Positions 8,007 through 39,965 of a stretch of 64,000 nt of DNA are shown here, piece after piece. This stretch comes from Desulfatiglandales bacterium (lineage in GTDB: Bacteria; Desulfobacterota; DSM-4660; Desulfatiglandales; Desulfatiglandaceae): assembly GCA_963662465.1 (NCBI GenBank), contig OY759599.1:3712001-3776000 (forward strand), given 5' to 3'. How positions within the stretch are numbered: position 1 is the stretch's first letter; each line of letters starts with the position of its first letter. Under the pieces are notes generated by a model, which worked only from the letters and a program-made list of their open reading frames with translations, did not search any database and was not told where the DNA came from. The translations under genes and the position numbers were made by a program.

Positions 8007-10181
8007 ATGTCAAAAAAACAGCATTCCTTTTTTGCCACCTGCCCTAAAGGTATCGATGAAGTCCTTTACCATGAAATTCTTTCGATGGGCATCTCACACG
8101 TAAAGCAAACCCGTTCAGGGGTTTATTTCAAAGGCGACCTTCAGGCCGCCTACAAAGTCTGCCTCTGGTCCCGTCTTGCCAATCGTGTTTTCCTCCCCCT
8201 GGCCCGCTTCGAGGCAAAGACGCCCGATGAACTCTATACGCAAGTCTACGAATCGGTACAATGGCATGACCACCTGAAGGTAAATAACACCATTGCCGTT
8301 GATTTTACAGCCAACCACGCCAACGCCTTCCATTCTCACTACGCGGCCCTTCGTGTTAAAGATGCCGTCGCCGACCAGTTTCGCGATAGATATGGATCCC
8401 GCCCATCCGTTGACAAGGAAAATCCCGATGTTCGCATCAATGTATTTATGAAGGGTGACCTGGCGCAAGTTTCCCTGGATTTGAGCGGCAACAGTCTCCA
8501 CAAACGCGGCTATCGCCTCGAGGGCGGCAAAGCGCCGCTAAAGGAAAATCTGGCCGCCGCGATATTAGTCCGCGCAAATTGGCCCGAATTGGCCCGAACC
8601 GGCGCCCCGCTCGTGGATCCCCTGTGCGGATCGGGAACCCTTCTGATTGAAGGCGCGCTCGTGGCCATGGACAGGGCGCCGGGGCTTTCGAGATCCGCCT
8701 TTGGCTTCACAAAGTGGAAACAGCATGACCCGGCGGCCTGGCATGCCCTGTTGGCGGAAGCAAAGGCACGGGCGGAAAAAGGAATTCAAATCACTACCGG
8801 AAATTTTTTCGGTTTTGACGCGGATCATGAGATTATTGCCCAGGCAAAAGCCAACGCGATCCGTGCAAGCGTTGAGAAGGTGGTTTCATTTCAGGTTCAG
8901 GAACTTCAAAACCTCAAGGCGCCGAAGACAAAAAATCCTGGATTACTGATTGCCAATCCGCCCTACGGCGAACGGATGGGCAAAACAACAAACCTTGAAA
9001 ATCTATACAAAACCCTTGGGAATCAACTGAAGCAGCACTATAAAGGCTGGTCGGCTGGGGTATTTACCGCTTATCCGGACCTGGCCAAAAAAATGGGCAT
9101 CCGGTCCAATAAACAATACCACCTCTTTAATGGTCCCATTCCCTGCAAACTGCTCAAGTTTGACATCCAGGAAAAATGGGTCATGCACGAAAGGTTGCCC
9201 GGTCGCCCGTTGTCTCAAACCGGCAAAACCATTGATATCGACCCAACGTCGGAGATGTTTCAAAATCGACTTAAAAAGAACCTGAGAATCCTTGGGAAAT
9301 GGGCGCGCAAGGAGGGGATCACCTGCTATCGGCTCTACGATGCGGACATGCCCGAATATGCCGTGGCCATCGATGTTTATCAAGACCACTTGCACGTTCA
9401 AGAGTACAGGGCGCCTGACACTGTTTCTCCTGAAAAAGCAAGAAAGCGGTTGAAACAGGTCCTGACCGTCTTGCCCGAGGTACTCCGCATACCGCCTGAA
9501 AAAATCATTTTCAAGATGAGAGAAAAGAAAAAGGGCGACACACAATATGAGCGGTTTGATTCCCGAGGCCATTTTTTTGAGATTAGAGAAAACAGCCTGC
9601 GGTTTCTGGTAAACCTGACCGATTACCTGGATACCGGCCTGTTCCTGGACCAGAGACTTTTGCGCCAATGGGTGAGAGAGCAGGCGTGGGGAAAACGCGT
9701 ATTAAATCTGTTCTGTTACACCGCAACGGCTACGGTCTACGCTGCTTCAGGCGGCGCCGCCACCACCAAGAGCGTGGATATGAGCAAGACCTACCTTGGC
9801 TGGGCAAAGAAGAACCTGGGCCTCAACCATTACGATAACGCCAACCACCAGCTGGTGCAAGCCGACTGCCTGGAATGGATTGCCGCCTGCAAAGAGAAAT
9901 ACGACCTGATTTATCTGGATCCCCCCACCTTTTCCAATTCCAAACGAATGAAAATCGCCTTTGACATCCAGCGGGACCACATGCAGTTGCTGTCTCAAAC
10001 CCTGCGCCTTCTAGCCCCCGACGGGACCCTCATATTTTCCTGCAATCATCGGAAATTTAAACTGGCCCCGGAAGCCAAGGAGCGATGGGACGTTAAGGAT
10101 ATCACCCGGCCCACTATTCCGAGGGATTTTCAAAGAAACCAACGCATCCACAACGCTTTTGAGATCAAAAAACGAATCTGA
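8007..10181 (+). CDS. rlmKL: Bifunctional 23S rRNA methyltransferase RlmKL
   Basis: THUMP region, LHKRGYR, APLKENLAAA, DPLCGSGT, NPPYG; second MTase with YLDTGLFLD, LNLFCYT, DPPTFSNSK. Confidence 0.95.
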   Translation: MSKKQHSFFATCPKGIDEVLYHEILSMGISHVKQTRSGVYFKGDLQAAYKVCLWSRLANRVFLPLARFEAKTPDELYTQVYESVQWHDHLKVNNTIAVDFTANHANAFHSHYAALRVKDAVADQFRDRYGSRPSVDKENPDVRINVFMKGDLAQVSLDLSGNSLHKRGYRLEGGKAPLKENLAAAILVRANWPELARTGAPLVDPLCGSGTLLIEGALVAMDRAPGLSRSAFGFTKWKQHDPAAWHALLAEAKARAEKGIQITTGNFFGFDADHEIIAQAKANAIRASVEKVVSFQVQELQNLKAPKTKNPGLLIANPPYGERMGKTTNLENLYKTLGNQLKQHYKGWSAGVFTAYPDLAKKMGIRSNKQYHLFNGPIPCKLLKFDIQEKWVMHERLPGRPLSQTGKTIDIDPTSEMFQNRLKKNLRILGKWARKEGITCYRLYDADMPEYAVAIDVYQDHLHVQEYRAPDTVSPEKARKRLKQVLTVLPEVLRIPPEKIIFKMREKKKGDTQYERFDSRGHFFEIRENSLRFLVNLTDYLDTGLFLDQRLLRQWVREQAWGKRVLNLFCYTATATVYAASGGAATTKSVDMSKTYLGWAKKNLGLNHYDNANHQLVQADCLEWIAACKEKYDLIYLDPPTFSNSKRMKIAFDIQRDHMQLLSQTLRLLAPDGTLIFSCNHRKFKLAPEAKERWDVKDITRPTIPRDFQRNQRIHNAFEIKKRI

Positions 10182-10291
10182 AAACCAGGGAAAAATCCTT
10201 GTAGAACCGTAAAAAAATAGGATTGTCGCCTCTCCCATAATGTGCTATGAGTAGCTCGATTTTCAAAAAATCCTCATAACAGAGAAAACAA

Positions 10292-11134
10292 ATGACTGAT
10301 CATGAAACATTTCTTCGGGATGCCGGAGAAAGCCTCAACGAAATCGTCAAACCCTATCAGGTAGAAATCAATCGACGGCAGCGAATGGCCGATTTTATCA
10401 AAACCTGCATGCGATGCACAGACAGAAATGACTTTCTTCAACTGGATGAACTGTTAAAAACCAAAATGGCCGGGGATATCCGGGAAGAAGCAGGTCTTAA
10501 TGAAAGCAGCGCCATTTTCCAAAACCTGAGCGAATACGCCAATGAGCAGGTGGATCGCTACCGAATTGAATTCATTGAAGATCTCACGGATCGGGCACGG
10601 GAAGCAAACCTTGAAATGACCATCGACTTTCCCCGATTCCATTCATTGAAGGGAATTGACGGCGAAATCGATTTTTCCAGTCGCGCCACCACCATCAACG
10701 GGAAACGCCTCAAATCCATTGACCCCAGGCGTATTGTGACAGCCCTGCTCCGTTTAAAAAAACAGCTCTATGACCGCCCCTATGACCCCCGGACCTTCAT
10801 TGACGGCCTGTTTGCCATCTACAATGAGATTCTGGACAAGGAAAAACTGCCCCCGGGCGCCAAGATCCCGGCCCAGCGTCTTTATCTGGATTATGTGATT
10901 TCCCTGCAAAATAAATCCTTTTTTCAGAACATGGACAAGGGCAAATTCCGGGGTTACAGCGGCGACCAGTTCAATGTGGACCTGTGGCGCTATTTTCAGG
11001 CGGGCATTGAAGGAACATCCAGCGGCCATGTGCTTAGAACGACGCCGGGAAGAATCAGCGCCCTGTGGCTCATTGACAGCGATGGCGAAAAACGCCGCAT
11101 CAGCGGCATATCATTCGAGGAGAAAGACGCCTGA
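10292..11134 (+). CDS. Hypothetical protein, first gene of the candidate defence operon
   Basis: 280-aa ORF whose stop overlaps the next start (TGATG). Confidence 0.75.
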   Translation: MTDHETFLRDAGESLNEIVKPYQVEINRRQRMADFIKTCMRCTDRNDFLQLDELLKTKMAGDIREEAGLNESSAIFQNLSEYANEQVDRYRIEFIEDLTDRAREANLEMTIDFPRFHSLKGIDGEIDFSSRATTINGKRLKSIDPRRIVTALLRLKKQLYDRPYDPRTFIDGLFAIYNEILDKEKLPPGAKIPAQRLYLDYVISLQNKSFFQNMDKGKFRGYSGDQFNVDLWRYFQAGIEGTSSGHVLRTTPGRISALWLIDSDGEKRRISGISFEEKDA

Positions 11135-12435
11135 TGACCCCACAACAGATGGAACAGTTAAAGCCTTTCGAGGCGCGGGCCATTATCGAGGAACTGAGAA
11201 AAGGCAGCGTTCCCGCGGATTACGTGCCCTTCTTTACGGTGGGACGGGAAAACTGGCTCACCTTTATCGAGGACGATCTGGATAACTACATCGCCGAAGG
11301 CGGCGCCAAGGTCCGTTTTCTGAGCGGCGATTACGGGGACGGCAAAACCCATTTCATGTCCGTGATCCGCCACCTGGCCCTTCAAAAGGGTTTTGCCGTA
11401 TCCTTTGTGGTCTTGACCCGGGAAGTGCCCATCCACAAATTCGAGGCGGTTTATCAGGCCATCGTGAAACAGCTCCGCGGCCGATTTGGGGGGATCGGCA
11501 TCCACCCGCTGCTGGACGACTATGTGACTGAAGCGGTGAAAGGGCTGGCGCTTGAAGACGGTTCCCCCTCTTTGGAAAAGCTGGCCGGCCTCTCGGACGA
11601 AATTCGCGCCCTTCCCGGCATGGACATCAATTTCGCCAACGGCATCATCGCCCTGTTGAACAACCGCTTGCAGCCCCTTTCAGAAGGAGAATCGCGGGAA
11701 GAGCGGGACAATGCCCGCGAGGTACTCTATCTCTGGTTTGAAGGCGGGAAGGTCGCCAAAAAAGATCTCAAGCCCTTTCATATCTTTGAGGTCATCAACA
11801 AGAGCAACAGCAAGAACTTCCTGAACGCACTGGTGGCATTTCTGCGCTTTGGGGGATATCAGGGGTTGATCCTTCTCATGGACGAGCTGGAAACCGTAAT
11901 CAGCCAGGGCAAGTCCATTCGCGGGGCAGCCTATGAAAATGTCAGACTGCTCATCGACAACACGGAACAGGCGGGCTTTCTGCACATCTTTTTTTCCATC
12001 ATTCCCGATATTCTGGAATCGGAAAAGGGATTCAAGTCCTATGACGCCCTTTGGAGCCGGGTTCGGTCCATCGGCGAAAACAAGCGGCTCAACTATCGCG
12101 GGGTCCTCATCGACCTCCACCGAACTCCGCTAAAAACCGGTGAACTGACGGCCCTGGGCAAAACCCTTCGGACCATTCATGGCATCTCTTACCGGTGGGA
12201 CGCGGAAGAACGCATCCCGGACAATCTCCTTGCGGATATCTGCAAAAACCAGAAAAAAATGGGTGTTTTGAGCGAAGTGCGGCTTTTCGTGAAACAGGTA
12301 ATCCGCATCCTGGACATGGGGGAGCAGGGTGATGACGCCATGGACGAACTGGACCTCACAGCCCAGATGGTTCAAAGCCAGGACGAAATGGAAAGAGAAA
12401 AAGTAGAACACCTGGAACCCAAATGGGATTCGTAA
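11134..12435 (+). CDS. BrxD-like (DUF2791) P-loop ATPase
   Basis: N-terminal 'IIEELRKGSVP...VGRE', Walker A GDYGDGKTH, Walker B LILLMDELE, 'KSYDALWSR'. Confidence 0.8.
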   Translation: MTPQQMEQLKPFEARAIIEELRKGSVPADYVPFFTVGRENWLTFIEDDLDNYIAEGGAKVRFLSGDYGDGKTHFMSVIRHLALQKGFAVSFVVLTREVPIHKFEAVYQAIVKQLRGRFGGIGIHPLLDDYVTEAVKGLALEDGSPSLEKLAGLSDEIRALPGMDINFANGIIALLNNRLQPLSEGESREERDNAREVLYLWFEGGKVAKKDLKPFHIFEVINKSNSKNFLNALVAFLRFGGYQGLILLMDELETVISQGKSIRGAAYENVRLLIDNTEQAGFLHIFFSIIPDILESEKGFKSYDALWSRVRSIGENKRLNYRGVLIDLHRTPLKTGELTALGKTLRTIHGISYRWDAEERIPDNLLADICKNQKKMGVLSEVRLFVKQVIRILDMGEQGDDAMDELDLTAQMVQSQDEMEREKVEHLEPKWDS

Positions 12436-12453
12436 AGCGGCAAAACCGCAGTT

Positions 12454-12996
12454 TCAAGTTTTGAGTTTTGAGTTTTGGGTTTTCGCGACGCTGAATACGG
12501 AAGAATGCATTTGCAAAAGTGTGTTCAAAGGTAAAAACAGTTTTAAAGAATGGTCGGACAACGGAATAAAACCAAAGTTCGAATAGTACTCTTTTGCACC
12601 TTGGTTCTTGGCATCCACAAATAATCCGATAATACCGACATTCTCCGAAATATGAATGACCCGCTTCATGGCATTGATCATCATGTGTTTACCAATACCC
12701 TGCCTTTGAAGTCTTTTGGCAACGGCGAGACGAGCAATCTTAACTGCTGGAAGGTTTCCTTTATATTTTTTTGCAAATTTGCGGGGCAGTTTCTCTGCGG
12801 AAACTTCAAAAACGGAAAGCGTATAATACCCCAGAATTTCTTCTGGAACAATACTGCCGGTCAATACGAATGTTCGGGAGAGCCCTTTCATAAGATTTTG
12901 CCGGGCAAGGTTTTTAAGAAACTCATTCAGCTCTTTCACGCCGCAGTCAAAGCCTGCTCTATTATGTGAACGGTTCAGCCCTTCAAACCTGTTCAT
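12454..12996 (-). CDS. GNAT acetyltransferase toxin (TacT/AtaT-like)
   Basis: FDCG...LNEFL, ILGYYTL, PAVKIARLAV...QRQGIG, VDAKN...FGF. Confidence 0.88.
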   Translation of the reverse strand: MNRFEGLNRSHNRAGFDCGVKELNEFLKNLARQNLMKGLSRTFVLTGSIVPEEILGYYTLSVFEVSAEKLPRKFAKKYKGNLPAVKIARLAVAKRLQRQGIGKHMMINAMKRVIHISENVGIIGLFVDAKNQGAKEYYSNFGFIPLSDHSLKLFLPLNTLLQMHSSVFSVAKTQNSKLKT

Positions 12997-13270
12997 TCCC
13001 GAATTCCTTTTTATAGGCTTGAGCAGCTTCCATCAACCGGTCATTCGGCTGCGGTGGATTTTCAACGGCTTCAAATATTTTCTCCGCGTCGCGGAGCGTC
13101 AAATTCAATACCCACTCCCGTTCCAAAACTGAATTGGCTTTCTCCAATGCCGATTGCACAACAAACTGATTTAAAGTTGCCCCTGACAAGGCTGCCGCGC
13201 TTATCAGTTTTTCATGGACATGAGAAGGCATTCTGGTTTGAAATCTTTTTTCTGCTATTGCCATTGTCAC
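12983..13270 (-). CDS. DUF1778 RHH antitoxin (TacA/AtaR-like)
   Basis: 'AAALSGATLNQFVVQSALEKA...NPPQPNDRL'; overlaps the toxin start; upstream palindrome GACAA-CAT-TTGTC (~13336-13348). Confidence 0.88.
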   Translation of the reverse strand: MTMAIAEKRFQTRMPSHVHEKLISAAALSGATLNQFVVQSALEKANSVLEREWVLNLTLRDAEKIFEAVENPPQPNDRLMEAAQAYKKEFGNEQV

Positions 13271-13430
13271 CTCCTAAACTTTGATTAGAGCGTTTATCAA
13301 CCGTTGAGGAATGAATAACATATTTGTGCCAAAATGACAACATTTGTCGGATGAACGATTGGAATTGTCCCCTCACCCGTAATATGTTATAGGAGTCCAA
13401 CATTGTCGGAAATCACCAGAAAATTGGAAT

Positions 13431-14651
13431 TTGAATGTGGACCTTCAATCTTTAAAAAACACAATCCAACAGGAACCTAATTTCACCCTCAGGCGCGCCA
13501 TTGAACGTCTGCGGGAAGGGATATTCGATCCCTTCGCAATCCGATTGCTCACCGCCCGGGAGGAACAACTGGCTCAAGCCTTTGAGCGGGGATTTGCCTC
13601 CCCCAGGGACAACTTTTTCCCCCATCTTTGCATCCGCGGCAATTACGGGCAGGGGAAAAGCCACTCCCTGGCCTATCTTCAGGAAAAAGCGCTGAAGGAC
13701 GGGTTTGCGACCAGCATGATCAACCTCGATCCCCGGGAGGTCCCCTTTCACGATTTCAGAGGGGTATACCGGGAACTCCTGACCCAAATTCACTTTCCGG
13801 ACCATGAGGGGACCTTTTTTTCAAAATGGAAATCCTGGTCGGAAGAGAACCAACCCCTCATTCACCTGCCGGATGAAATGCCGCATTTTTTCAAGGCCAT
13901 GCTGACGGCCGCGGCCAACAAAACCATTCCGCTTTCCGACAAACAAAAGACCCTTAAAAAGCACCGGCAATACCATCCCCGGGAGTTTCCCTTTCTTCTC
14001 AAACGCGCCCTGTCAGGGGCCGTTGTACCGGTATGCCGATTGAAAAATGCCTGCAAGTACCGCGATGTCGAATTTTACAAGGACGCGCCCCTGAAATGCA
14101 CGGACCCCCATGACTACCTCACACAGATATTCTGTCTGGCAACCCTTTTTAAACACATGGGCTACAAGGGGTGGGTGGTTCTCTTTGATGAAGGCGAATC
14201 CATTGCGCAAACCCGGGTGACTTGCAGATCCAAAAGCTATCAGTTCCTTCACCGGTTATTTCTTCACAACCGCTCGCTTACGGGACTTTATCCGATCTTT
14301 GCCTTTACCGACGATTTTTTCTTTCGCGTCAAAGCGGAAGCTTACGATCGTATTCGGGTCACTAAAAAAGGGGAATTCCCCTGCTTTGACATGAACTACG
14401 CCCATGCATGGGAAAACCTGGGCGTCCACCAACTCCATGATTTGTCCGAAAAAGAATGGGGGGAATTGACCCGGAAACTCCTCTTGCTTCACATGGGGGC
14501 CTATACATGGGTCCCCGAAAACGGCCACATTCAAGGGGAAATGGAAACGGTTCTGGCGCAAACCCTCAACCGGGAAACCCGCGCAAGGATGCAATCCCTG
14601 GTCAACCAACTGGATATGGCCCACCAGGAACAGGTGCTGCACCTGACATAG
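13431..14651 (+). CDS. Second BrxD-like (DUF2791) P-loop ATPase
   Basis: 'RAIERLREG', Walker A GNYGQGKSH, 'DPREVPF', Walker B WVVLFDEGE. Confidence 0.75.
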   Translation: MNVDLQSLKNTIQQEPNFTLRRAIERLREGIFDPFAIRLLTAREEQLAQAFERGFASPRDNFFPHLCIRGNYGQGKSHSLAYLQEKALKDGFATSMINLDPREVPFHDFRGVYRELLTQIHFPDHEGTFFSKWKSWSEENQPLIHLPDEMPHFFKAMLTAAANKTIPLSDKQKTLKKHRQYHPREFPFLLKRALSGAVVPVCRLKNACKYRDVEFYKDAPLKCTDPHDYLTQIFCLATLFKHMGYKGWVVLFDEGESIAQTRVTCRSKSYQFLHRLFLHNRSLTGLYPIFAFTDDFFFRVKAEAYDRIRVTKKGEFPCFDMNYAHAWENLGVHQLHDLSEKEWGELTRKLLLLHMGAYTWVPENGHIQGEMETVLAQTLNRETRARMQSLVNQLDMAHQEQVLHLT

Positions 14652-14668
14652 ACCCCGGCCATAACATA

Positions 14669-17600
14669 TTGGATTCTCCACTCCTCAAGCTCCCGAATAC
14701 CTTTCGCGCCTTTTACGGGGCCTTTCCGTCGCTCTTCCCCTTTCAGGTTCGGGCCATTGAACCGATCCTTCAGGGCAAAGACCTGATCCTTCAATCCGGA
14801 ACCGGTTCCGGCAAAACCGAAGCGGTTCTAGCCCCCTGCCTTGAACGGATTTTCATGTCCAACGGCATGGACCGCCTGGTTTATGTGGTACCCACCCGCG
14901 CCCTGGCCTTTGATCTGAAACGCCGGTTTGCCCCCATCATCACCCCGCGCCTGGGCCTGGGTCTGGGAGTCCGCACCGGCGATATCAAAAGATCCGGCGG
15001 TAGAACCCCGCACATCATGATCACCACGCCCGAATCCCTGGACGTACTTCTGGGGAGCCGGAACCCCGAACTCAGAAAATTTGCTTCCCAGGTGCGCATG
15101 GCCGTCATCGACGAAGTCCACCCCCTGGTACACCAGTATCGGGGCCGCCACCTGGCCCTGGTGCTGAAACGACTTGAACGCCGAAGCGGCGGGCCCTTGC
15201 AGAAAATCGCCCTATCCGCCACCATCGCCGATATGGAATCCATCGCCCGGTTTTTTGATTTTTCGGCCACGGCAAGTCGCATTTCCGAAGACGTGCGCAA
15301 GGAAATTGTACCCCACCTGGTTCACCTCAAAAATGAAGCGGAAGAACTCACAGCCCTTTTTGACGACCTCTACCGTTTTTTCGGATACCGAAAAATCCTG
15401 CTCTTTGCCAACAGCCGCAGCGCCTGCGACCGATTGTTTGCCCTGCTGGGTCAACAGGGACGTTTCAGTGGGGCCTGCGGCCTTCACTATTCCAATCTCA
15501 AACCCAAGCAACGACGAGCCGTTGAACGGAACTTTCGCAAAAACCCCCATGCCCTGTGCGTGGCCACCAGCACCCTTGAACTGGGAATTGACGTGGGCGA
15601 TGTGGACGCGGTGGTGTTGTATGAACCCCCGGACTCGGTTTCCGCCTTTCTGCAACGTATCGGCCGCGCCAACCGACGGGTTCAAAAAACATTTTTCTGG
15701 GGCATCTGCCGAGGCGCAAAAGCCGGTGAACAGTTGACCCGTTTCTTAGGCCTTCTCGCCCTGGCGGAACGGGGAAAAGTGGAAAGGCCGCTGCCGCGAA
15801 AATTGCGCAGCGTTCTAGGCCAGCAGATCGTCAGTTGCATTTATGAAAAACAGCGCATAACGCCCAGCGCCATGAAAGATCTGTTCCCGGAAGAAAGCCC
15901 GGCACTGGATGAAATTTTTAAAACCATGGAAAAAACGGGCTGGTTGACGAAAGGACCCGTCAACGGTCTGTTCCGGGGCGGATGGCAGTACACCAACTGT
16001 CTCTTTGAATACGGCATATGGAGCAATTTCCCGCCGGCCGAAGAAGACTACGCGCTGGAGTTGTCCCAAAAGACCATCGCCGATATCCCGCGGGCGGTAG
16101 TGGCGCAACTGGAACCGGGTGACCGGGTCAATCTGGCGGGAAAAAGACTCTTAATTACTGAAATCATCCATGCCCGGAGCGCAGGGCGGGTTCTGGCCGT
16201 CCCATCGGCCCGCACGGACAGCAAGGAAATATTCTGGCTGGGCCCCGGACAACAGGTTTCATATGAAGTAGCCCAATCCGTTCGGGAGATCCTCAAGGGT
16301 TCGGGAGTTGATGAAAAAGGGCTCTTTTCGCGAACGCGCACTCTACTTCAAAAGGAGCGGAAAAAAACCCAAAAGGCCGTCATCCTCAAAAACGGCATCG
16401 AGGTCATCTTAAGCCCCAACGGCTTTTACCGGTATCTGACCTATATGGGCTCCGTGGGCAACCTCATCCTGCGCTGGACCCTCCAACACAGCTTGTACAC
16501 ATCCGGGGAGGAAGATGTGTTTGTGGCCTCCGACGCCCTCGGCGTAGATTGTTCACACTGGATTGATTTCAGCAAACTGCGACTGCCCCTGGTAAAAAAG
16601 GATCTGATCACATGGACGGAACAGAACTTCAAACTGCTTAAGGCGTCATTTCCCTTGAACCGGTTTTGCAGCACCCTGCCCAAAGAACTTCATATGGCGG
16701 AAATGGCGGATTTTCTCTTCGATGAGCGCGTAATGAACGTCTTTTTGCATTATCGTGAAAGTTCTTCCGAGATCCTCTCAGGCAACCCGGGACTTCTTGA
16801 ACGGGGGCACAGTGGGGGAGATACCCCCGATCCCGTTGAAATACCGGCAAGGGGCGAACCGCTTCTTGAAGTGGAAAAAAACCGTGTGAAGTTCACTCCG
16901 GAAATCTCCCTCGATTGCGCAACCCACACCAACCGGCCGCTCACCGGCAGCATTCTGGCGGGGTATTTCAGGCACCTTCAGTGCGAGCGCTTTTTGCGCC
17001 TTCATTTTGTTCCGGTTCACCATCAGCCCCCATCCCCACCCCCACTTGACAAGGAAGCGGCAGATAAACGCATTCATGAGGGCCGTCAGTTTGAAAAAAC
17101 CGTTATGGTCCATTTACAAAACAATGGCGCAACCGTGGTCCAAATACCCGAAAAAGACGTCAATGGAAATTTCAGATCCATGGCAGTACGGCATCGGGAA
17201 ACCGTTGATAGCCTGACAAAATTGCTGCAAATACCGCTCGGGGAAAACGCCGCCCCTCATTATCTTTCCCAGGGTGTACTCCTTAACCCCCCCCTGTTCC
17301 AGGATGTGGATGGCATAGGCATTCCCGATCTCATTCGATTTTCACGGGAAAAGGGAACGTATCTCCTTACGGTGGGAGAAATCAAAAACAGCCAGGCCCC
17401 TCAGTTTCACCACAAGTGGCAGGCGGCCTTCTATGCCTTCCTGCTCAAAAAAATGACGGCATCGTTAAAAATTCATGAACCCGTCGTCATTTCAAACCGG
17501 GGATTTCTGGTATTGCCCGCTCAAAAAAAATCGGAAAAAATGGTGGAACACGAGTTTGATTTGCATCCGTATCTGGCGGCTTTCCCGGCATTGATTCAAA

Positions 17601-20371
17601 ATCTGGAGACCGTCATCTCAAAAAATGCCCGAGAAGCAGGGTTTCAGCTCAAGCGCCATTGCGTGTACTGCCAATGGTTCAACTTCTGCTATCAAGAGGC
17701 CCTGAACCGGGAAGACCTCCAGTTTCTGCCAAATCTGAGCCCCGGACAACTGGATCAACTCAGAGCGCTGGATCTCAAATGCATGGATACGGCCAAGCAG
17801 TGGCTGGAGACCCCACAGGTCAATCCGACCTCCATGGCGCCCCGCACGCTCGAACAGCTGAAAGCCGGCATCAATGCCTTCTCAAACCATCACATTTTGT
17901 TTAAAAATAAGGTTACGCAACTTTTCCCAGCCAACATCTCAACATCCATAATTCTCTCTGCAATTCCCAAACCACTGCCGCATCACCCGACCCTGGGACT
18001 TTTCATTGCGGACGACAAAGGCAATGGCTCAACCGTTCACATTTGGAAAATGCAAACGGGCGGCAACAACGAAGAATCGGAATGGCATGATTTCGCAAAC
18101 ACCTTTTTTGCCATCTGGAAGCAATCGATGGAAAGCGGCAAAGGACCCCATGTGTTTTCCTTTGGCGGTAGAACCCCATCCCTGCTGCTCAAATGGGCAG
18201 GGGAGATGGGAAAACCGACACAATATGAATGGATCACGGACATGGTCCAAAACCATTGGACAGATCTCGCACGGGTTTTCAGAAACCATTTTACCCTCCC
18301 CATTCCCGGGGAACTCACCCTGCATTCCCTGCATCATGTTCTGGGGCTTACGCCTGCCCTCAAAAAGCCCCCCAGTCTATTTCACGGGGACCGGCACGAT
18401 ATGGATCCGAAAGAGACACTGCTTTTCTGCGACAACCTGCGAAAATGGCTCATGGCACGCCTCACCAGCAGCCGGCAACAGGAGGAATGGAAAACGGGGA
18501 AGGAACAAGAAGACCCATCCCAGACCTATATTCAGTTCGTGAAAGGGGAGCAGCGGTTAAGGCAGGAAGACATCCTGTCTCTCCGAGAATACTCCCTGAA
18601 AGAACGAGTGGATCGCTTTCGCGCCATGGGACCGCTTCGCTTTACGGGAAAAGAACTGGATCATGAAGGGAAATTCCGATACAACTTCGCCGCAACCCCT
18701 GATCACGGCAAATCCAAATTCCGGGAAGGGGATTTCTTAAAACTGGCGTCTCCGGGGATGCACGACCTTCAAAACGGGTTTTCCGTTATCCTGAACCGCT
18801 ATGCGCCAATGGATCAAACCCTGTCCATCGCCTCCCGACAGGGACACCTGGCCTTGAACCGAAGCATTGAATACTCCCTGGAAGAGGACGCGGAAGACTG
18901 GAACACTCCCAAACTGCTCCACGCGGTCAAAACCGTGCTGGGCAACAATGAGCATCCAGTTTCACGAATGTTGCAGCGTGATCCCACCGGCGCACAGCAT
19001 CAAAGTTCCTCCTCCTGGATACGGACATGGCTCGTACAAAACAGTGCCATCATCGGGCTTAATACCGCACAGAAGCAGGCCATGGAACTCCCTTTCTCCC
19101 AGAACTTAGGCCTCATCGACGGTCCTCCCGGAACCGGCAAAACCCATCTCCTGGGCTGGATGCTGATCGCGCTTATCCTTCACGCCCATGAATCGGGGAA
19201 ACCCCTGCGTATTGCGATCTCCGCCCTGACCCACCAGGCCATCGACAACGCCCTTATGAAGGTTTCGCGCTTGCTGAAACAATTCAAACTTCACGGCTTT
19301 CCCGCGAAATTGATTAAATGGGGCAGTCCCCATGAACCCGGGGAAAGAAACAATCCTTTCAGCGTTGAAACATCCAATGATCCCGAAGATATTTTCAGTT
19401 GCCGACATCTGATCCTCGGCGCTACCGGATACGGACTTTACCACCTTTGTGACAGCCGAAACGGCAATTTTCCACTGTATTTTGACTGGATGGCATTAGA
19501 TGAGGCATCTCAGATGCTGATTCCCCAGGCGGCACTGACACTGGCCTATGGAAAGGGGCATTATCTTCTTTTGGGAGATATCAAACAATTGCCTCCCATT
19601 GTTCTGGGCCATAATGAAAGGGAAGACACAGCACTCATTTCATCGAACCCAAATCCCCTGGAAGTTCAAAAATCCATTCTTGAGCATCTCTTAGGACATT
19701 ATGGCGCCGAACATCGTGTCCGTCTGAACGTCACCTACCGAATGAACCGCGAACTCTGTCAATTTCCAAGCCGCACCTGGTACGACGGCATCCTTCATCC
19801 CGCCCCCGAAAACGCCGGATTGCGACTTGCGTTGAAGGAGGAACTCTCCCACGACGAAATAGACCAACTGATCGACCCGGAGCGCCCCGCGGTCCTCGCG
19901 ATCCTAAATCACCACCATCACCACCAGGAATGCGAACCGGAAGCCGACATCATCTCCCGCATCGCCTTCCGAATGATCACCCATTTCGGCGTTTCACCAG
20001 AGCAGATCGCCCTGATCTCCCCCCATCGCGCCCAGAACAACCTGATCTCCGTCCGTCTTTCCGGACTGCTTGAGGGAACGAACTGCAAACTTCCTCTCAT
20101 TGATACGGTGGAGCGTGTTCAGGGGGCGGAACGGGACGTAATCATTTTCGGGTTCACCACATCGGACCGGGATCATGTGACATCCGCCTTCTTAAATAAT
20201 CCCAACCGCTTTAATGTGGTCATAACCAGAGCCAGGAAAAAGCTCATCGTAATCAGCGGCAATGCTTTTTTCTCCAGCATTCCAAATCGAGAAAAAAACC
20301 TTGATCGCAATGCCTGCTTCAAGGAATTCCATGAGTACTGCAATAAAAAGGGAAGCCTCTTTTTTCTTTGA
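14669..20371 (+). CDS. ~1900-aa fusion: Lhr-like SF2 helicase + Fe-S PD-(D/E)xK (RecB/Cas4/TM0106-like) nuclease + degenerate RNase H-like + DNA2/UPF1-like SF1 helicase
   Basis: SF2: GTGSGKT, TPESLD, DEVH, SAT, ATSTLELGID, QRIGR. Nuclease: C...PD...EIK...QxxxY...CVYCQWFNFC. SF1: GPPGTGKT, DEASQ, GDIKQLPP, YRM, TVERVQG, NVVITRAR. Start uncertain (ORF opens at 14456; TTG at 14669 follows the upstream stop). Confidence 0.85.
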   Translation: MDSPLLKLPNTFRAFYGAFPSLFPFQVRAIEPILQGKDLILQSGTGSGKTEAVLAPCLERIFMSNGMDRLVYVVPTRALAFDLKRRFAPIITPRLGLGLGVRTGDIKRSGGRTPHIMITTPESLDVLLGSRNPELRKFASQVRMAVIDEVHPLVHQYRGRHLALVLKRLERRSGGPLQKIALSATIADMESIARFFDFSATASRISEDVRKEIVPHLVHLKNEAEELTALFDDLYRFFGYRKILLFANSRSACDRLFALLGQQGRFSGACGLHYSNLKPKQRRAVERNFRKNPHALCVATSTLELGIDVGDVDAVVLYEPPDSVSAFLQRIGRANRRVQKTFFWGICRGAKAGEQLTRFLGLLALAERGKVERPLPRKLRSVLGQQIVSCIYEKQRITPSAMKDLFPEESPALDEIFKTMEKTGWLTKGPVNGLFRGGWQYTNCLFEYGIWSNFPPAEEDYALELSQKTIADIPRAVVAQLEPGDRVNLAGKRLLITEIIHARSAGRVLAVPSARTDSKEIFWLGPGQQVSYEVAQSVREILKGSGVDEKGLFSRTRTLLQKERKKTQKAVILKNGIEVILSPNGFYRYLTYMGSVGNLILRWTLQHSLYTSGEEDVFVASDALGVDCSHWIDFSKLRLPLVKKDLITWTEQNFKLLKASFPLNRFCSTLPKELHMAEMADFLFDERVMNVFLHYRESSSEILSGNPGLLERGHSGGDTPDPVEIPARGEPLLEVEKNRVKFTPEISLDCATHTNRPLTGSILAGYFRHLQCERFLRLHFVPVHHQPPSPPPLDKEAADKRIHEGRQFEKTVMVHLQNNGATVVQIPEKDVNGNFRSMAVRHRETVDSLTKLLQIPLGENAAPHYLSQGVLLNPPLFQDVDGIGIPDLIRFSREKGTYLLTVGEIKNSQAPQFHHKWQAAFYAFLLKKMTASLKIHEPVVISNRGFLVLPAQKKSEKMVEHEFDLHPYLAAFPALIQNLETVISKNAREAGFQLKRHCVYCQWFNFCYQEALNREDLQFLPNLSPGQLDQLRALDLKCMDTAKQWLETPQVNPTSMAPRTLEQLKAGINAFSNHHILFKNKVTQLFPANISTSIILSAIPKPLPHHPTLGLFIADDKGNGSTVHIWKMQTGGNNEESEWHDFANTFFAIWKQSMESGKGPHVFSFGGRTPSLLLKWAGEMGKPTQYEWITDMVQNHWTDLARVFRNHFTLPIPGELTLHSLHHVLGLTPALKKPPSLFHGDRHDMDPKETLLFCDNLRKWLMARLTSSRQQEEWKTGKEQEDPSQTYIQFVKGEQRLRQEDILSLREYSLKERVDRFRAMGPLRFTGKELDHEGKFRYNFAATPDHGKSKFREGDFLKLASPGMHDLQNGFSVILNRYAPMDQTLSIASRQGHLALNRSIEYSLEEDAEDWNTPKLLHAVKTVLGNNEHPVSRMLQRDPTGAQHQSSSSWIRTWLVQNSAIIGLNTAQKQAMELPFSQNLGLIDGPPGTGKTHLLGWMLIALILHAHESGKPLRIAISALTHQAIDNALMKVSRLLKQFKLHGFPAKLIKWGSPHEPGERNNPFSVETSNDPEDIFSCRHLILGATGYGLYHLCDSRNGNFPLYFDWMALDEASQMLIPQAALTLAYGKGHYLLLGDIKQLPPIVLGHNEREDTALISSNPNPLEVQKSILEHLLGHYGAEHRVRLNVTYRMNRELCQFPSRTWYDGILHPAPENAGLRLALKEELSHDEIDQLIDPERPAVLAILNHHHHHQECEPEADIISRIAFRMITHFGVSPEQIALISPHRAQNNLISVRLSGLLEGTNCKLPLIDTVERVQGAERDVIIFGFTTSDRDHVTSAFLNNPNRFNVVITRARKKLIVISGNAFFSSIPNREKNLDRNACFKEFHEYCNKKGSLFFL

Positions 20372-20421: not shown

Positions 20422-20665
20422 TTAAAACCGCGCCTCCTGAATATCCCTGGCCCTCATCACCCTTTCCAGGACCAACGCGGAAGCCTCCCCGTCTGAAATA
20501 CCGGAAAGGTCTCTGTAGGGCGCCGCCGGCACCGCCAGATGAATGTCGATCCGGTCCAGCAGGGGCCCCGATATTTTGGTCCTGTATCGCTGAATCTGTA
20601 AGGTAGAACAGGTGCATTCCCGCTTGGTGTCGCCCAGAAAGCCGCACGGATGCGGGTTCAACATG
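20422..20665 (-). pseudogene. comM: Internal fragment of ComM/YifB (Mg-chelatase-like AAA+)
   Basis: NPHPCGFLGD...CTC...QRYRTKISGPLLDRIDIH...ARDIQEARF; ~80 aa with no N-terminal half. Confidence 0.8.
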
Positions 20666-20684
20666 CAGGGACTCACATATCCAT

Positions 20685-20920
20685 TTGAATTACCTGAATA
20701 TTTCTGTGAATCCGCCATATTTGAAACCCCCAAAAACCCCAAAAAACGAGTTCGGGCTACCAAACAAAGATTACTATTTCACACGGGATGTATGCAAGGC
20801 ATTAAACATCAAACCAGACACTTTCAGATCAAGAATTTATGCAGGGCATTATCCTGAATATGGAAAGATCGGCGTAAAGAGAATTTCCACAATCGAATAA
20901 ATTCAAGAACTCATCTACAA
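20685..20920 (+). pseudogene. Excisionase/MerR-like HTH relic
   Basis: YFTRDVCKALNIKPDTFRSRIYAG...KRISTIE*IQEL; a stop interrupts the typical C-terminal helix. Confidence 0.4.
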
Positions 20921-26252: not shown

Positions 26253-27623
26253 TCATTTTAATTGCTGGGATAGTTTGTCGTTGGATATCATCCATTTTAA
26301 ACATTCTGCAATAGAACCGGTTAAATAAAATGGGAGGTTGAGCAGCAAGAATTCTTTCCCATTAAACGTTTTGATTTGATTGATTTCCAATGGTCCGGAA
26401 TAAATCCTTACAGCATATTTATGAGGTGCGCGGTCCATGAACTGATGAAGAGAGCGAAGCCGACCCGTGGCAGCAGATTTTACTTCAACGGGTATGACCA
26501 GCCCCTCATATTGAATCAGGAAGTCAACTTCGGCATTGGACTGTTTTTTCTCTCGGTTCCAAAATTGCAGCCTGTATAGAGGGGATGTTTCAGCAGCGAG
26601 AAGTTCCTGGCCGACAATATGCTCTGCTATTTTTCCCTGATAGACGGAATCAATACCGTTGGCTCCAAAAAGGTCTTTTTGAAATCCACCAAAATAGTTT
26701 AACATTCCAGTGTCAACGACTTGAAGCCGTGGTGATTTTTTGGTGTTTGGCCGCAGCGGAGGCGCCACAGAGGAAGAAGGATATAAAAGATAAATCAACA
26801 TTGCTTTTTCCAATACTCTTAATGCTTCACCCATCTCCCTTGATTTATAGTTAGAATTGCCAAAACCTTGGAATTTAATCCTGCGGCCTGCTTCATAGAA
26901 CGCATTTGAGACAGCATGACGAATTACATTTACCATTGTTCTGTTCCGAGCATATTTTTCGACGTCATCAAGATAAGAGACGATTAAACTGTCAAATATG
27001 CTGCTTAGAGCAACGATATCTTTCCGAGCAGAATAATTTTGAACTATTTCCGGCATACCCCCGATGAGTGCGTAGGTATTGAATAATTTCATTAACTTGT
27101 CATGTGCAAAATCCGGGACGGGGATGCCTCCATTAAGAATGTCCAAGCTGGACTTTTCTGATAAAGCATTTAAAAATTCCTTAAAGCTAAGTGGCTTCAT
27201 CACAAGGTATTCCACCCTGCCAACAGGGAAGCTGATATGTGTATCAATGAGTGTTTCTAAAAGAGACCCGGCCGCAATGACGTACAATTCCGGAAATGCT
27301 TCATAAAAATATCTGAGATAAGAAACAGCTGATGGGCTGTTTTGAATTTCATCTATGAATATTAAAATACTGCTGTTATTTCTTACCTGGTTTTTATGAA
27401 AGAAAATTGCCTGAAGCAAATCTTCTATTGAATGATTCTGCTCGAAAATATTTTGCTCCGCTTTAATTTCAAGATTCAGATATAGATACTGTTCGAATTG
27501 TTCTGAAAAAAGGTTGATGGCAGTTGTTTTTCCGACTTGCCTTGCTCCTCTCAGAATCAGTGGTTTTCGGTCTTTCTTTTTTCTCCATCCTGATAAATTT
27601 TTCAAAATATCCCTATTGAACAT
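26253..27623 (-). CDS. AAA_14 ATPase with DUF4143 C-terminus
   Basis: GARQVGKT, FIDEIQ, AAGS, GGMPE, EVDF...PVEVKS. Confidence 0.88.
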   Translation of the reverse strand: MFNRDILKNLSGWRKKKDRKPLILRGARQVGKTTAINLFSEQFEQYLYLNLEIKAEQNIFEQNHSIEDLLQAIFFHKNQVRNNSSILIFIDEIQNSPSAVSYLRYFYEAFPELYVIAAGSLLETLIDTHISFPVGRVEYLVMKPLSFKEFLNALSEKSSLDILNGGIPVPDFAHDKLMKLFNTYALIGGMPEIVQNYSARKDIVALSSIFDSLIVSYLDDVEKYARNRTMVNVIRHAVSNAFYEAGRRIKFQGFGNSNYKSREMGEALRVLEKAMLIYLLYPSSSVAPPLRPNTKKSPRLQVVDTGMLNYFGGFQKDLFGANGIDSVYQGKIAEHIVGQELLAAETSPLYRLQFWNREKKQSNAEVDFLIQYEGLVIPVEVKSAATGRLRSLHQFMDRAPHKYAVRIYSGPLEINQIKTFNGKEFLLLNLPFYLTGSIAECLKWMISNDKLSQQLK

Positions 27624-39521: not shown

Positions 39522-39965
39522 CTTGCTGAAAACCGATGAGTTGATGCGGTATTTGCAGCGTCCCTCATTGTTACGCGAAATCGCGGCTGCGCTACCCAAA
39601 GGAAAAACGATTGTCATTGACGAAATTCATTATCTGATTCAGGCGCAAGGAACCGTCTTCGCACTCTGCGGTTCTCCCAGATGCACTACGATATTTCCTA
39701 CTGGCGCTTGTCAAGTGGTATTGAGGTCGATTTTATCCTGGGGCCTGGTACCGTAGCCGTGGAGGTTAAAGCAAAAGTACGCGTTACCGAGAATGATTTG
39801 GGAGGTCTCCGCCACTTTCGCCGGGAATACCCAAAGGTTTTTCACCTGATTGTGGTTTGTCTGAAAACCCGGCACCGCGGGACTGAAGATGGTATCCATA
39901 TTCTGCCCTACCGGAAATTCATTCAGTCCTTTTGGGAAGGCACATGGGATGGAATACTGCCATAG
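39400..39965 (+). pseudogene. Internally deleted AAA_14/DUF4143 ATPase
   Basis: [19 protein letters not shown] joined out of frame to YWR..GIEVDF..AVEVK. Confidence 0.75.

Follow-up and report, generated by a model that had tools for sequence, protein, structure and literature searches.

A four-gene cassette of a novel-fold protein, two BrxD-like ATPases and a giant predicted helicase-nuclease-helicase in a Desulfatiglandales bacterium

Gene content of the cassette

In silico analysis of a 64,000-nucleotide (nt) stretch of contig OY759599.1 from a Desulfatiglandales bacterium (assembly GCA_963662465.1), here termed the window and numbered from its first base, identified four co-oriented open reading frames (ORFs) on the plus strand between positions 10292 and 20371, which encode in this order X280, AtpA, AtpB and a protein of approximately 1900 amino acids (aa), referred to as the giant. 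An initial annotation had proposed this run as a candidate defence system. The shared orientation of the four ORFs and the overlap of the first pair were both borne out, the stop codon of X280 and the start codon of AtpA sharing one base (TGATG), and its description of the last pair as abutting is fair, as AtpB stops at TAG 14649-14651 while homology to the giant starts at approximately 14651-14669. The giant ORF is open from 14441 and ends at 20371, its likely start being TTG 14669; residues of the giant are counted from nt 14651. Alignment with the closest relative (L011) places the start of AtpB at GTG 13437 rather than at TTG 13431. All four annotated genes are present, but they are not contiguous, since a minus-strand toxin-antitoxin (TA) pair separates the two ATPases. 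The features of the cassette are as follows.

10292..11134, plus strand: X280, 280 aa, the signature protein of the cassette, without a Pfam, PADLOC or NCBIfam family
11134..12435, plus strand: AtpA, 433 aa, BrxD/SngB-like ORC/Cdc6-type AAA+ ATPase (Walker A G65-H73, Walker B D250-E251)
12436..13436: insertion of 1001 nt that separates the stop codon of AtpA (TAA) from the start codon of AtpB (GTG) and holds the TA pair
12454..12996, minus strand: putative TacT-like toxin of the GNAT acetyltransferase type, 180 aa (Acetyltransf_1, 33.5 bits; cut-off 20.7)
12983..13273, minus strand: TacA/DUF1778-type antitoxin, approximately 95 aa (PF08681 TacA1, 3.1e-21, 75.6 bits against a cut-off of 21)
13437..14651, plus strand: AtpB, 404 aa from GTG 13437, BrxD-like AAA+ ATPase (Walker A G68-K74, Walker B D251-E252)
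14651..16810, plus strand: giant module 1, aa 1-720, full-length BrxHI/SngC-type Lhr-like superfamily 2 (SF2) helicase
16913..17740, plus strand: giant module 2, aa ~755-1030, Cas4/Exo5/AdnB/Dna2-type PD-(D/E)xK nuclease with four invariant Cys
17912..18496, plus strand: giant module 3, aa ~1088-1282, DnaQ/DEDD-exonuclease fold without conserved acidic catalytic residues
18506..20371, plus strand: giant module 4, aa ~1286-1906, Upf1/Ighmbp2/Dna2-type superfamily 1B (SF1B) helicase with an N-terminal barrel/stalk and an AAA_11/AAA_12 core

Both ATPases match the Pfam family BrxC_BrxD (PF10923) above its cut-off of 22.2 bits, AtpA with 195.2 bits (2.3e-57) and AtpB with 68.8 bits (5.4e-19), and alignments of 41 homologues for each show no variation in the Walker A and B residues, in agreement with the annotation of two divergent DUF2791-type ATPases with intact Walker motifs. 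Among the PADLOC models, each scores higher on BrxD (AtpA 3.4e-45, AtpB 5.8e-20) than on SngB (1.1e-34 and 1.4e-5, respectively). Profile alignment of AtpA with AtpB by hhalign (probability 99.6, E 3e-24, 24% identity over 368 columns) indicates that the two are paralogues, AtpB being the more divergent. The modelled AtpA-AtpB complex scored 0.74, compared to 0.00 for the best control; the mark used for this score is reached by 116 of 157 solved complexes and by 2 of 215 mismatched pairs, a calibration that is only rough for this pair since custom alignments were supplied. Separate model runs had at least 91% of contacts in common, and partner predicted local distance difference test (pLDDT) values were at least 84. 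Complex prediction thus supports, without proving, binding between AtpA and AtpB, and together with their paralogy it backs the hetero-oligomeric ATPase pair that had been suggested as a subject for structure prediction.

X280 had been annotated as a 280-aa protein of no family, and this description holds at the level of both profile and fold. Scans of the Pfam, PADLOC and NCBIfam profiles returned no match, and the 410 detectable homologues are without a domain and are named at most 'hypothetical protein'. Searching 1.84 billion proteins with the X280 profile recovered 343 representatives at E <=1e-3 and 18 at E <=1e-30, mostly of 260-300 aa. The AlphaFold2 (AF2) model (pLDDT 89, predicted template modelling score 0.75) consists of a long N-terminal helical hairpin, a small beta domain, a helical domain and a C-terminal sheet. 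Foldseek comparison with the PDB gave a best E of 0.44, VIA comparison with representatives a best Z of 8.1 that covers the helical hairpin only, and the ESM Atlas unnamed clusters only. Winged-helix parts of Cdt1, ORC and Stn1 were among the low-ranking Foldseek matches and were discarded as relatives, being too weak (probability <=0.2). On this confident model, X280 is predicted to adopt a novel fold, and judged by profile it is not TerB.

The annotated order of helicase, nuclease and helicase in the giant, with an Lhr-like start, was recovered by both profile and fold. Residues 25-697 match PADLOC BrxHI at 3.3e-87 (model positions 22-686 of 698) and residues 25-691 match SngC at 1.1e-66 (model positions 22-709 of 720), after which 1200 further residues follow. 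Module 1 has the Pfam domains DEAD and Helicase_C, and its GTGSGKT, DExH and SAT motifs are conserved in 31 sequences. The mid-region of 710 residues, modelled from a 31-sequence alignment with a pLDDT of 84.5, divides into three parts, which are modules 2 and 3 and the barrel/stalk of module 4; a PDB sequence search with its profile returned nothing meaningful (best E 0.93). The nuclease module matches Cas_Cas4 with 27.5 bits (cut-off 22.7) and, by fold, Cas4 7mi4_A (VIA Z 13.2, 192 residues aligned, root-mean-square deviation (rmsd) 3.9) and Dna2 (Foldseek, 1.8e-5). Its (D/E)xK and QxxxY motifs are conserved in 31 full-length homologues, as are the cysteines C777, C1004, C1007 and C1013, which we take to be a 4Fe-4S signature of the Cas4/AddB/Dna2 type. 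Module 3 resembles 1zbh_A (VIA Z 13.4, 165 residues aligned, rmsd 3.2) and also ERI, RNase T and ExoI. Across 31 sequences this module lacks an invariant acidic residue, only D465 (mid-region numbering) reaching 90%, and it is therefore read as a DEDD-fold domain that is probably degenerate and non-catalytic. Module 4 matches AAA_12 (5.1e-29, 101.7 bits) and AAA_11 (1.2e-19, 71.6 bits), both with a cut-off of 27; its N-terminal barrel/stalk resembles Ighmbp2 (4b3f residues 4-159, VIA Z 12.4), and its SF1 motifs GPPGTGKT and DEASQ (Walker A and B, respectively) are conserved in 31 sequences. The nuclease and both helicase modules keep their conserved motifs across homologues, and the DNA-degrading effector that had been postulated for this locus has its candidate in the conserved Cas4/Dna2-type nuclease domain. 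Characterised Lhr motors move 3'-to-5', and Upf1/Dna2-type SF1B motors move 5'-to-3'.

Conservation, spread and insertion site

To establish synteny across genomes, a check that had been suggested with the initial annotation, 80 related loci from other genomes were recovered with the X280 profile, and a strict gene order was found. X280 is followed by AtpA in 77 of the 77 loci with room for AtpA, and AtpA is followed by AtpB in 67 of 69 (exceptions L037 and L060). The giant lies at most 400 nt past AtpB in 38 of 51 loci and 0.7-7.2 kb past it in four; it is absent within the locus in nine, and in two loci (L072 and L085) it is located upstream instead. Four of five genomes whose locus is without the giant carry a homologue of it elsewhere, the fifth being a 2.2-Mb partial genome. 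Where all three segments of the giant are held by a locus, they form one ORF in 33 of 38 cases (L011 and L038 were counted as single after inspection of coordinates).

The distribution of the cassette was assessed across 401 evenly sampled genomes of the phylum, its own genome included. Strong X280 matches and matches to the giant mid-region occurred in the same six genomes (6/401) and on the same contigs. Additionally, this sample yielded a weak partial match to the giant only (G405) and weak matches to X280 only (G033, G047 and G114). The weak X280 match in G033 (L092) showed no cassette genes by tblastn and was treated as false or unrelated. Among other genomes of the genus X280 was detected in 4 of 10 and, across the bacterial family, in 5 of 24; at 55-65% identity, the X280 family occurs in Desulfobacterota as well as in Latescibacterota, SAR324 and others. 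The core of X280, two ATPases and a giant of approximately 1900 aa is a conserved module that travels between distant bacteria.

Two further loci are of note with regard to this spread. A 3.9-kb contig labelled Promethearchaeota archaeon (L019) holds X280, AtpA and AtpB at 51-70% identity to the window, which reflects either horizontal acquisition by an archaeon or a bacterial contig that was binned wrongly. Furthermore, in a complete Electrothrix genome (L031:12127-13371) AtpB is split into ORFs of 194 aa and 204 aa and the giant lies approximately 2.1 Mb away, and the module may be decaying in this lineage.

Weak X280 homologues extend the comparison to a wider class. Among four weak X280 hits that were examined, three adjoin BrxD-like genes (two such genes each in L091 and L093, while the contig of L094 ends inside the first); L091 and L093 also adjoin a short Lhr-like helicase, and L092 showed nothing. 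A second cassette, of a basic type, is located in the genome under study itself at L010:8766-18127 (G000:C1:1846766-1856127, minus strand), in which the genes encode, in order, an SNF2/DrmD-like protein of 804 aa, an uncharacterised protein of 389 aa, a 290-aa weak homologue of X280 (E 1e-4), BrxD-like proteins of 425 aa and 528 aa, and a BrxHI-like helicase of 682 aa without a nuclease fusion. The same-genus locus L094 keeps the SNF2, 389-aa and 290-aa genes in the L010 order at 65-91% identity. Judged by sequence, the cassette of the window fits a class composed of a small X protein, two paralogous PF10923 ATPases and an Lhr-like helicase in conserved order; compared to the basic type (L010), the Lhr module is extended by a fused nuclease and a second helicase in the branch to which the window belongs, and the window copy additionally holds the TA pair.

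The origin of this TA pair is apparent from L011, in which X280 and AtpA are 95% and 98% identical, respectively, to the window copies. In L011 the TAA of atpA is directly followed by the GTG of atpB, while the window has exactly 1001 extra bases at this point with both ORFs intact, and none of the 80 related loci (0/80) contains a GNAT or TacA match. The GNAT gene overlaps the upstream TacA gene by 14 nt, and gene order and profiles identify the two as a predicted TacAT-type (type II) TA pair. The pair landed antisense between atpA and atpB, damaging neither ORF. Placed stop-to-start inside an operon, it provides a natural case of a selfish element that nests in, and possibly stabilises, an accessory module. 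The insert is single-copy in the genome save for the heptamer repeat (AGTTTTG)n that occupies 12444-12483 at its left end, and it was thereby ruled out as a multicopy element. A repeat search around it revealed no noteworthy target-site duplication or inverted repeats at its termini, and a promoter and terminator scan of 10100-14700 gave counts no higher than in shuffles. The heptamer run recurs at 54 further places in the genome, of which many belong to regular tandem arrays with a spacing of approximately 105 or 210 nt; such places lie around G000:C1 86-89 kb, 7.10-7.12 Mb and 8.10-8.16 Mb.

The position of the cassette in the chromosome was examined by comparison with other genomes of the genus. 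In G006 (L097), rlmL is followed after 1.35 kb by a full-length comM-type gene of 507 aa (L097:3543-5066) and there is no cassette, while in the window the 10-kb cassette is located between rlmL and a 113-aa comM-type remnant:

20422..20763, minus strand: comM/yifB-type Mg-chelatase-like remnant, 113 aa, covering only positions 155-205 of 207 of the Mg_chelatase profile

This remnant marks the downstream edge of the inserted cassette, G006 representing the empty site, and the rlmL-comM interval looks like a variable insertion spot. A second same-genus genome without X280 (G004, L095) was rejected for this comparison, as, past its rlmL, none of the cassette or downstream genes of the window were found. 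The upstream 10 kb of 18 related loci were surveyed by Pfam (132 ORFs; L011 and L058 were dropped for size) and differ in each of the 18. TA or defence-type genes are present in 8 of the 18, namely HicB; HipA; PIN; AAA_15 with DUF3226; AAA_21; an N6_N4 methylase with a RecD2-like protein; PDDEXK_3; and a UvrD-like with a MutS-like protein. Because of its patchy spread, its differing neighbours and the empty site in a same-genus genome, the cassette is considered accessory and mobile.

The initial annotation had placed the cassette at the edge of an island rich in insertion sequence (IS), TA and integron elements. IS and TA elements are indeed present, but they are situated 14-29 kb downstream, past metabolic genes, and neither an integrase family match nor an integron feature was found in the scanned window ORFs; the description as an island edge is loose. 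The low-GC segment 28616-39521 (41-47%) encodes two large predicted cell-wall hydrolase-type proteins (M23 with PKD and DUF5648; CHAP), as well as an IS91-family transposase, a DruA-like domain fused to DDE_Tnp_1_assoc, and a MazF/PemK toxin. Elsewhere in the window, PADLOC identified only PDC-S01 candidate ATPases (5e-185 and 4e-93 for the two), and these, together with a related fragment, are located as follows.

26253-27623, minus strand: PDC-S01 DUF4143/AAA_14 ATPase
39681-39965, plus strand: fragment of a third DUF4143/AAA_14 ATPase, 94 aa
41434-42603, plus strand: PDC-S01 DUF4143/AAA_14 ATPase

Relationship to BREX, Shango and helicase-nucleases

The best profiles for AtpA, AtpB and the N-terminal helicase module are those of the BrxD-BrxHI pair of type 2 (Pgl) and type 6 bacteriophage exclusion (BREX) systems, and as in those systems the ATPase and helicase genes are tightly linked. 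In the passages of PMC12839542 drawn on here, BrxD-BrxHI is described as a linked dyad of type 2 BREX, in which BrxD, an ORC/Cdc6-type AAA+ protein, is proposed to load or activate BrxHI; the terms 'Shango' and 'TerB' do not occur in that paper, and no stand-alone BrxD-BrxHI cassette is described in these passages. The reported absence of BREX core genes was upheld by several searches: Pfam detected no PglX, PglZ (PF08665) or BrxC among 48 window ORFs of at least 90 aa (selected as a greedy non-overlap pick) and no PglX or BrxC/PglY among the 132 upstream ORFs of the 18 related loci, while tblastn with four PglZ proteins of the same genome detected no PglZ in the window and 85 loci (1.2 Mb). 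In the PADLOC scan, BrxC appeared only as a 33-residue P-loop match. In contrast to BREX, the cassette has none of PglX, PglZ, BrxC/PglY and PglW as a linked gene, neither in the window nor at 85 related loci. The lack of a linked PglZ, the strict synteny and the co-occurrence in the same 6 of 401 genomes support the earlier view of a stand-alone module.

Four genes with a PglZ domain are located elsewhere in the genome (G000:C1:4201814, 787538, 5982167 and 4618394), which therefore probably carries BREX or BREX-related systems, albeit unlinked to the cassette. These genes, along with the fact that BrxD and BrxHI are the top-scoring PADLOC models, raise the prospect that the cassette is a detached accessory pair of BREX that acts in trans with core genes elsewhere in the chromosome. 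We regard this as very improbable, given that the nearest PglZ gene is approximately 470 kb away, that none is found in the window and 85 loci, and that the cassette moves as a unit. Moreover, AtpA (152.7 bits) and AtpB (68.2 bits) both fall below the 350-bit cut-off of the NCBIfam BrxD equivalog NF033438, and X280, the second ATPase and the nuclease-SF1B fusion are cassette extras that are not BREX parts.

Whether the locus matches an already named system was assessed with PADLOC v2, and no complete match was found. The system it most resembles in layout is Shango, described in the parts of PMC10250203 drawn on here as composed of a TerB protein (SngA), an ATPase (SngB) and a DEAD/DEAH helicase (SngC), and as protecting 10-100-fold. 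Like Shango, the cassette is stand-alone, follows the order of small protein, DUF2791-type ATPase and Lhr-like helicase, and has no methyltransferase; AtpA matches SngB, and the first 700 aa of the giant match SngC. It could accordingly be viewed as a divergent Shango, with a duplicated ATPase gene and with X280 as an SngA that has changed beyond recognition, and the gene order given for Shango of PA14 in those parts of PMC10250203 and the matches to the SngB and SngC models would fit such an origin. This seems improbable to us, as X280 matches neither the PADLOC SngA nor the Pfam TerB profile at E <=0.01 and its model mixes beta domains with helices; fold comparisons with it listed no TerB structure, which does not decide the matter by itself. 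In addition, all cassette proteins with such matches score better on BrxD and BrxHI than on the Sng models. The two paralogous ATPases, a predicted heterodimer where Shango has one ATPase, and the extension of the helicase by 1200 aa (a Cas4/Dna2-type nuclease, a DEDD-fold domain and an SF1B helicase) are constant features of the cassette. Full-text searches of the literature found no paper with this architecture. The cassette is judged to be neither Shango nor BREX, but probably an unnamed relative of anti-phage systems, with Shango (SngABC) and BrxD-BrxHI of type 2 BREX as its closest named kin.

The giant also invites comparison with RecBCD, AddAB, AdnAB and Dna2. It shares with them an Fe-S PD-(D/E)xK nuclease (as in AddB, Dna2, Cas4 and Exo5) and motors that are presumably opposite in polarity, and its fold matches go to Dna2, the AdnB nuclease, Exo5 and Cas4. 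In contrast to these enzymes, however, it is a single chain of approximately 1900 aa whose first motor is of the SF2 Lhr type rather than SF1A, it is partnered with AAA+ loaders and X280, and it is patchy and mobile rather than core.

Proposed function

Based on the above, we lean, by a small degree, towards the view that the cassette is a self-contained, horizontally transferred four-gene module for DNA surveillance that carries its own effector and serves in defence; its anti-phage role is one that we infer from homology and distribution. The mechanism proposed builds on the established gene content, synteny, co-occurrence, motif conservation, folds and predicted AtpA-AtpB interface, and adds to these, by inference, the loading step, the substrate and the polarities of the motors. 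AtpA and AtpB would form an ORC/Cdc6-like AAA+ heterodimer in which both subunits are catalytically competent. This heterodimer, together with X280 as a novel-fold adaptor or sensor, would recognise a DNA substrate, which may be invading DNA, a free end or a replication intermediate, and the complex would use ATP to load or license the giant. The latter is envisaged as a single-chain, two-motor helicase-nuclease in which an SF2 Lhr-type and an SF1B motor flank an Fe-S nuclease and which, being RecBCD/AddAB/AdnAB-like in layout, should unwind and degrade its target. As no methyltransferase is linked to the cassette, discrimination between self and non-self could not be by methylation.

Several observations weigh against a defence function, and some of them favour a different role. 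The case for defence in this family is made only from homology and distribution. The relatives of the giant (Lhr, Dna2, Exo5 and AdnAB) are repair enzymes; identity across phyla is high for a defence system (X280 approximately 60%, AtpA approximately 65-70%); and a scan of viral contigs with the X280 profile produced 43 pattern matches, of which 0 were confirmed. The upstream 10 kb contain only transport, metabolic or housekeeping genes in 10 of the 18 surveyed loci, the immediate flanks in the window are rlmL and the comM-like remnant together with metabolic genes, and the PDC-S01 candidates lie 6 kb or more from the cassette. Nor is the module always complete, since AtpB is missing after AtpA in 2 of 69 loci and the giant is missing from the locus in 9 of 51. 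The TA insertion is possibly polar on atpB and the giant, such that the window copy may be poorly expressed, and the AtpA-AtpB complex score could partly mirror resemblance to solved AAA+ assemblies.

The high conservation across phyla, the housekeeping or metabolic surroundings of those 10 loci and the failure to find the cassette in the viral contigs would suit an accessory machine for DNA repair or end processing, in which the AAA+ pair and X280 recruit the helicase-nuclease to host breaks, stalled forks or R-loops. So would the lack of a modification enzyme for self-marking and the resemblance of the effector domains to Dna2, Exo5, the AdnB nuclease, Lhr and Ighmbp2, which act in repair or RNA-DNA metabolism. 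We regard a repair role as a serious rival, albeit a less likely one than defence, as the spread of the cassette is very patchy (6/401 in the phylum sample, 4/10 in the genus), it sits at a different place in every genome and the site is empty in a close relative. Furthermore, its best profile matches are to the defence models BrxD, BrxHI, SngB and SngC, and TA or defence-type neighbours are found in 8 of 18 loci.

Within the defence reading, we tentatively entertain a more specific proposal, namely that the cassette represents a new class of innate immunity in which a heterodimeric ORC/Cdc6-like loader and a novel-fold sensor put a one-polypeptide, bipolar RecBCD-like enzyme on foreign DNA. 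If this is true, the helicase-loading logic of replication initiation would be used for defence without DNA modification, and the fused branch would show which effector activity is supplied in trans to the shorter modules of the Shango-like and BrxD-BrxHI kinds. BrxD/BrxHI and SngB/SngC are among the least understood parts of defence systems, and the idea that the ATPase loads the helicase has only been speculated on in print. The family described here constitutes a cleaner model, as it has no methylation machinery, a constant ATPase pair and an uncharacterised novel-fold partner, and since its helicase is covalently tied to an Fe-S nuclease and a second motor, its output would be DNA unwinding plus cleavage. 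The cassette could thereby show what the whole group of ATPase-helicase modules does.

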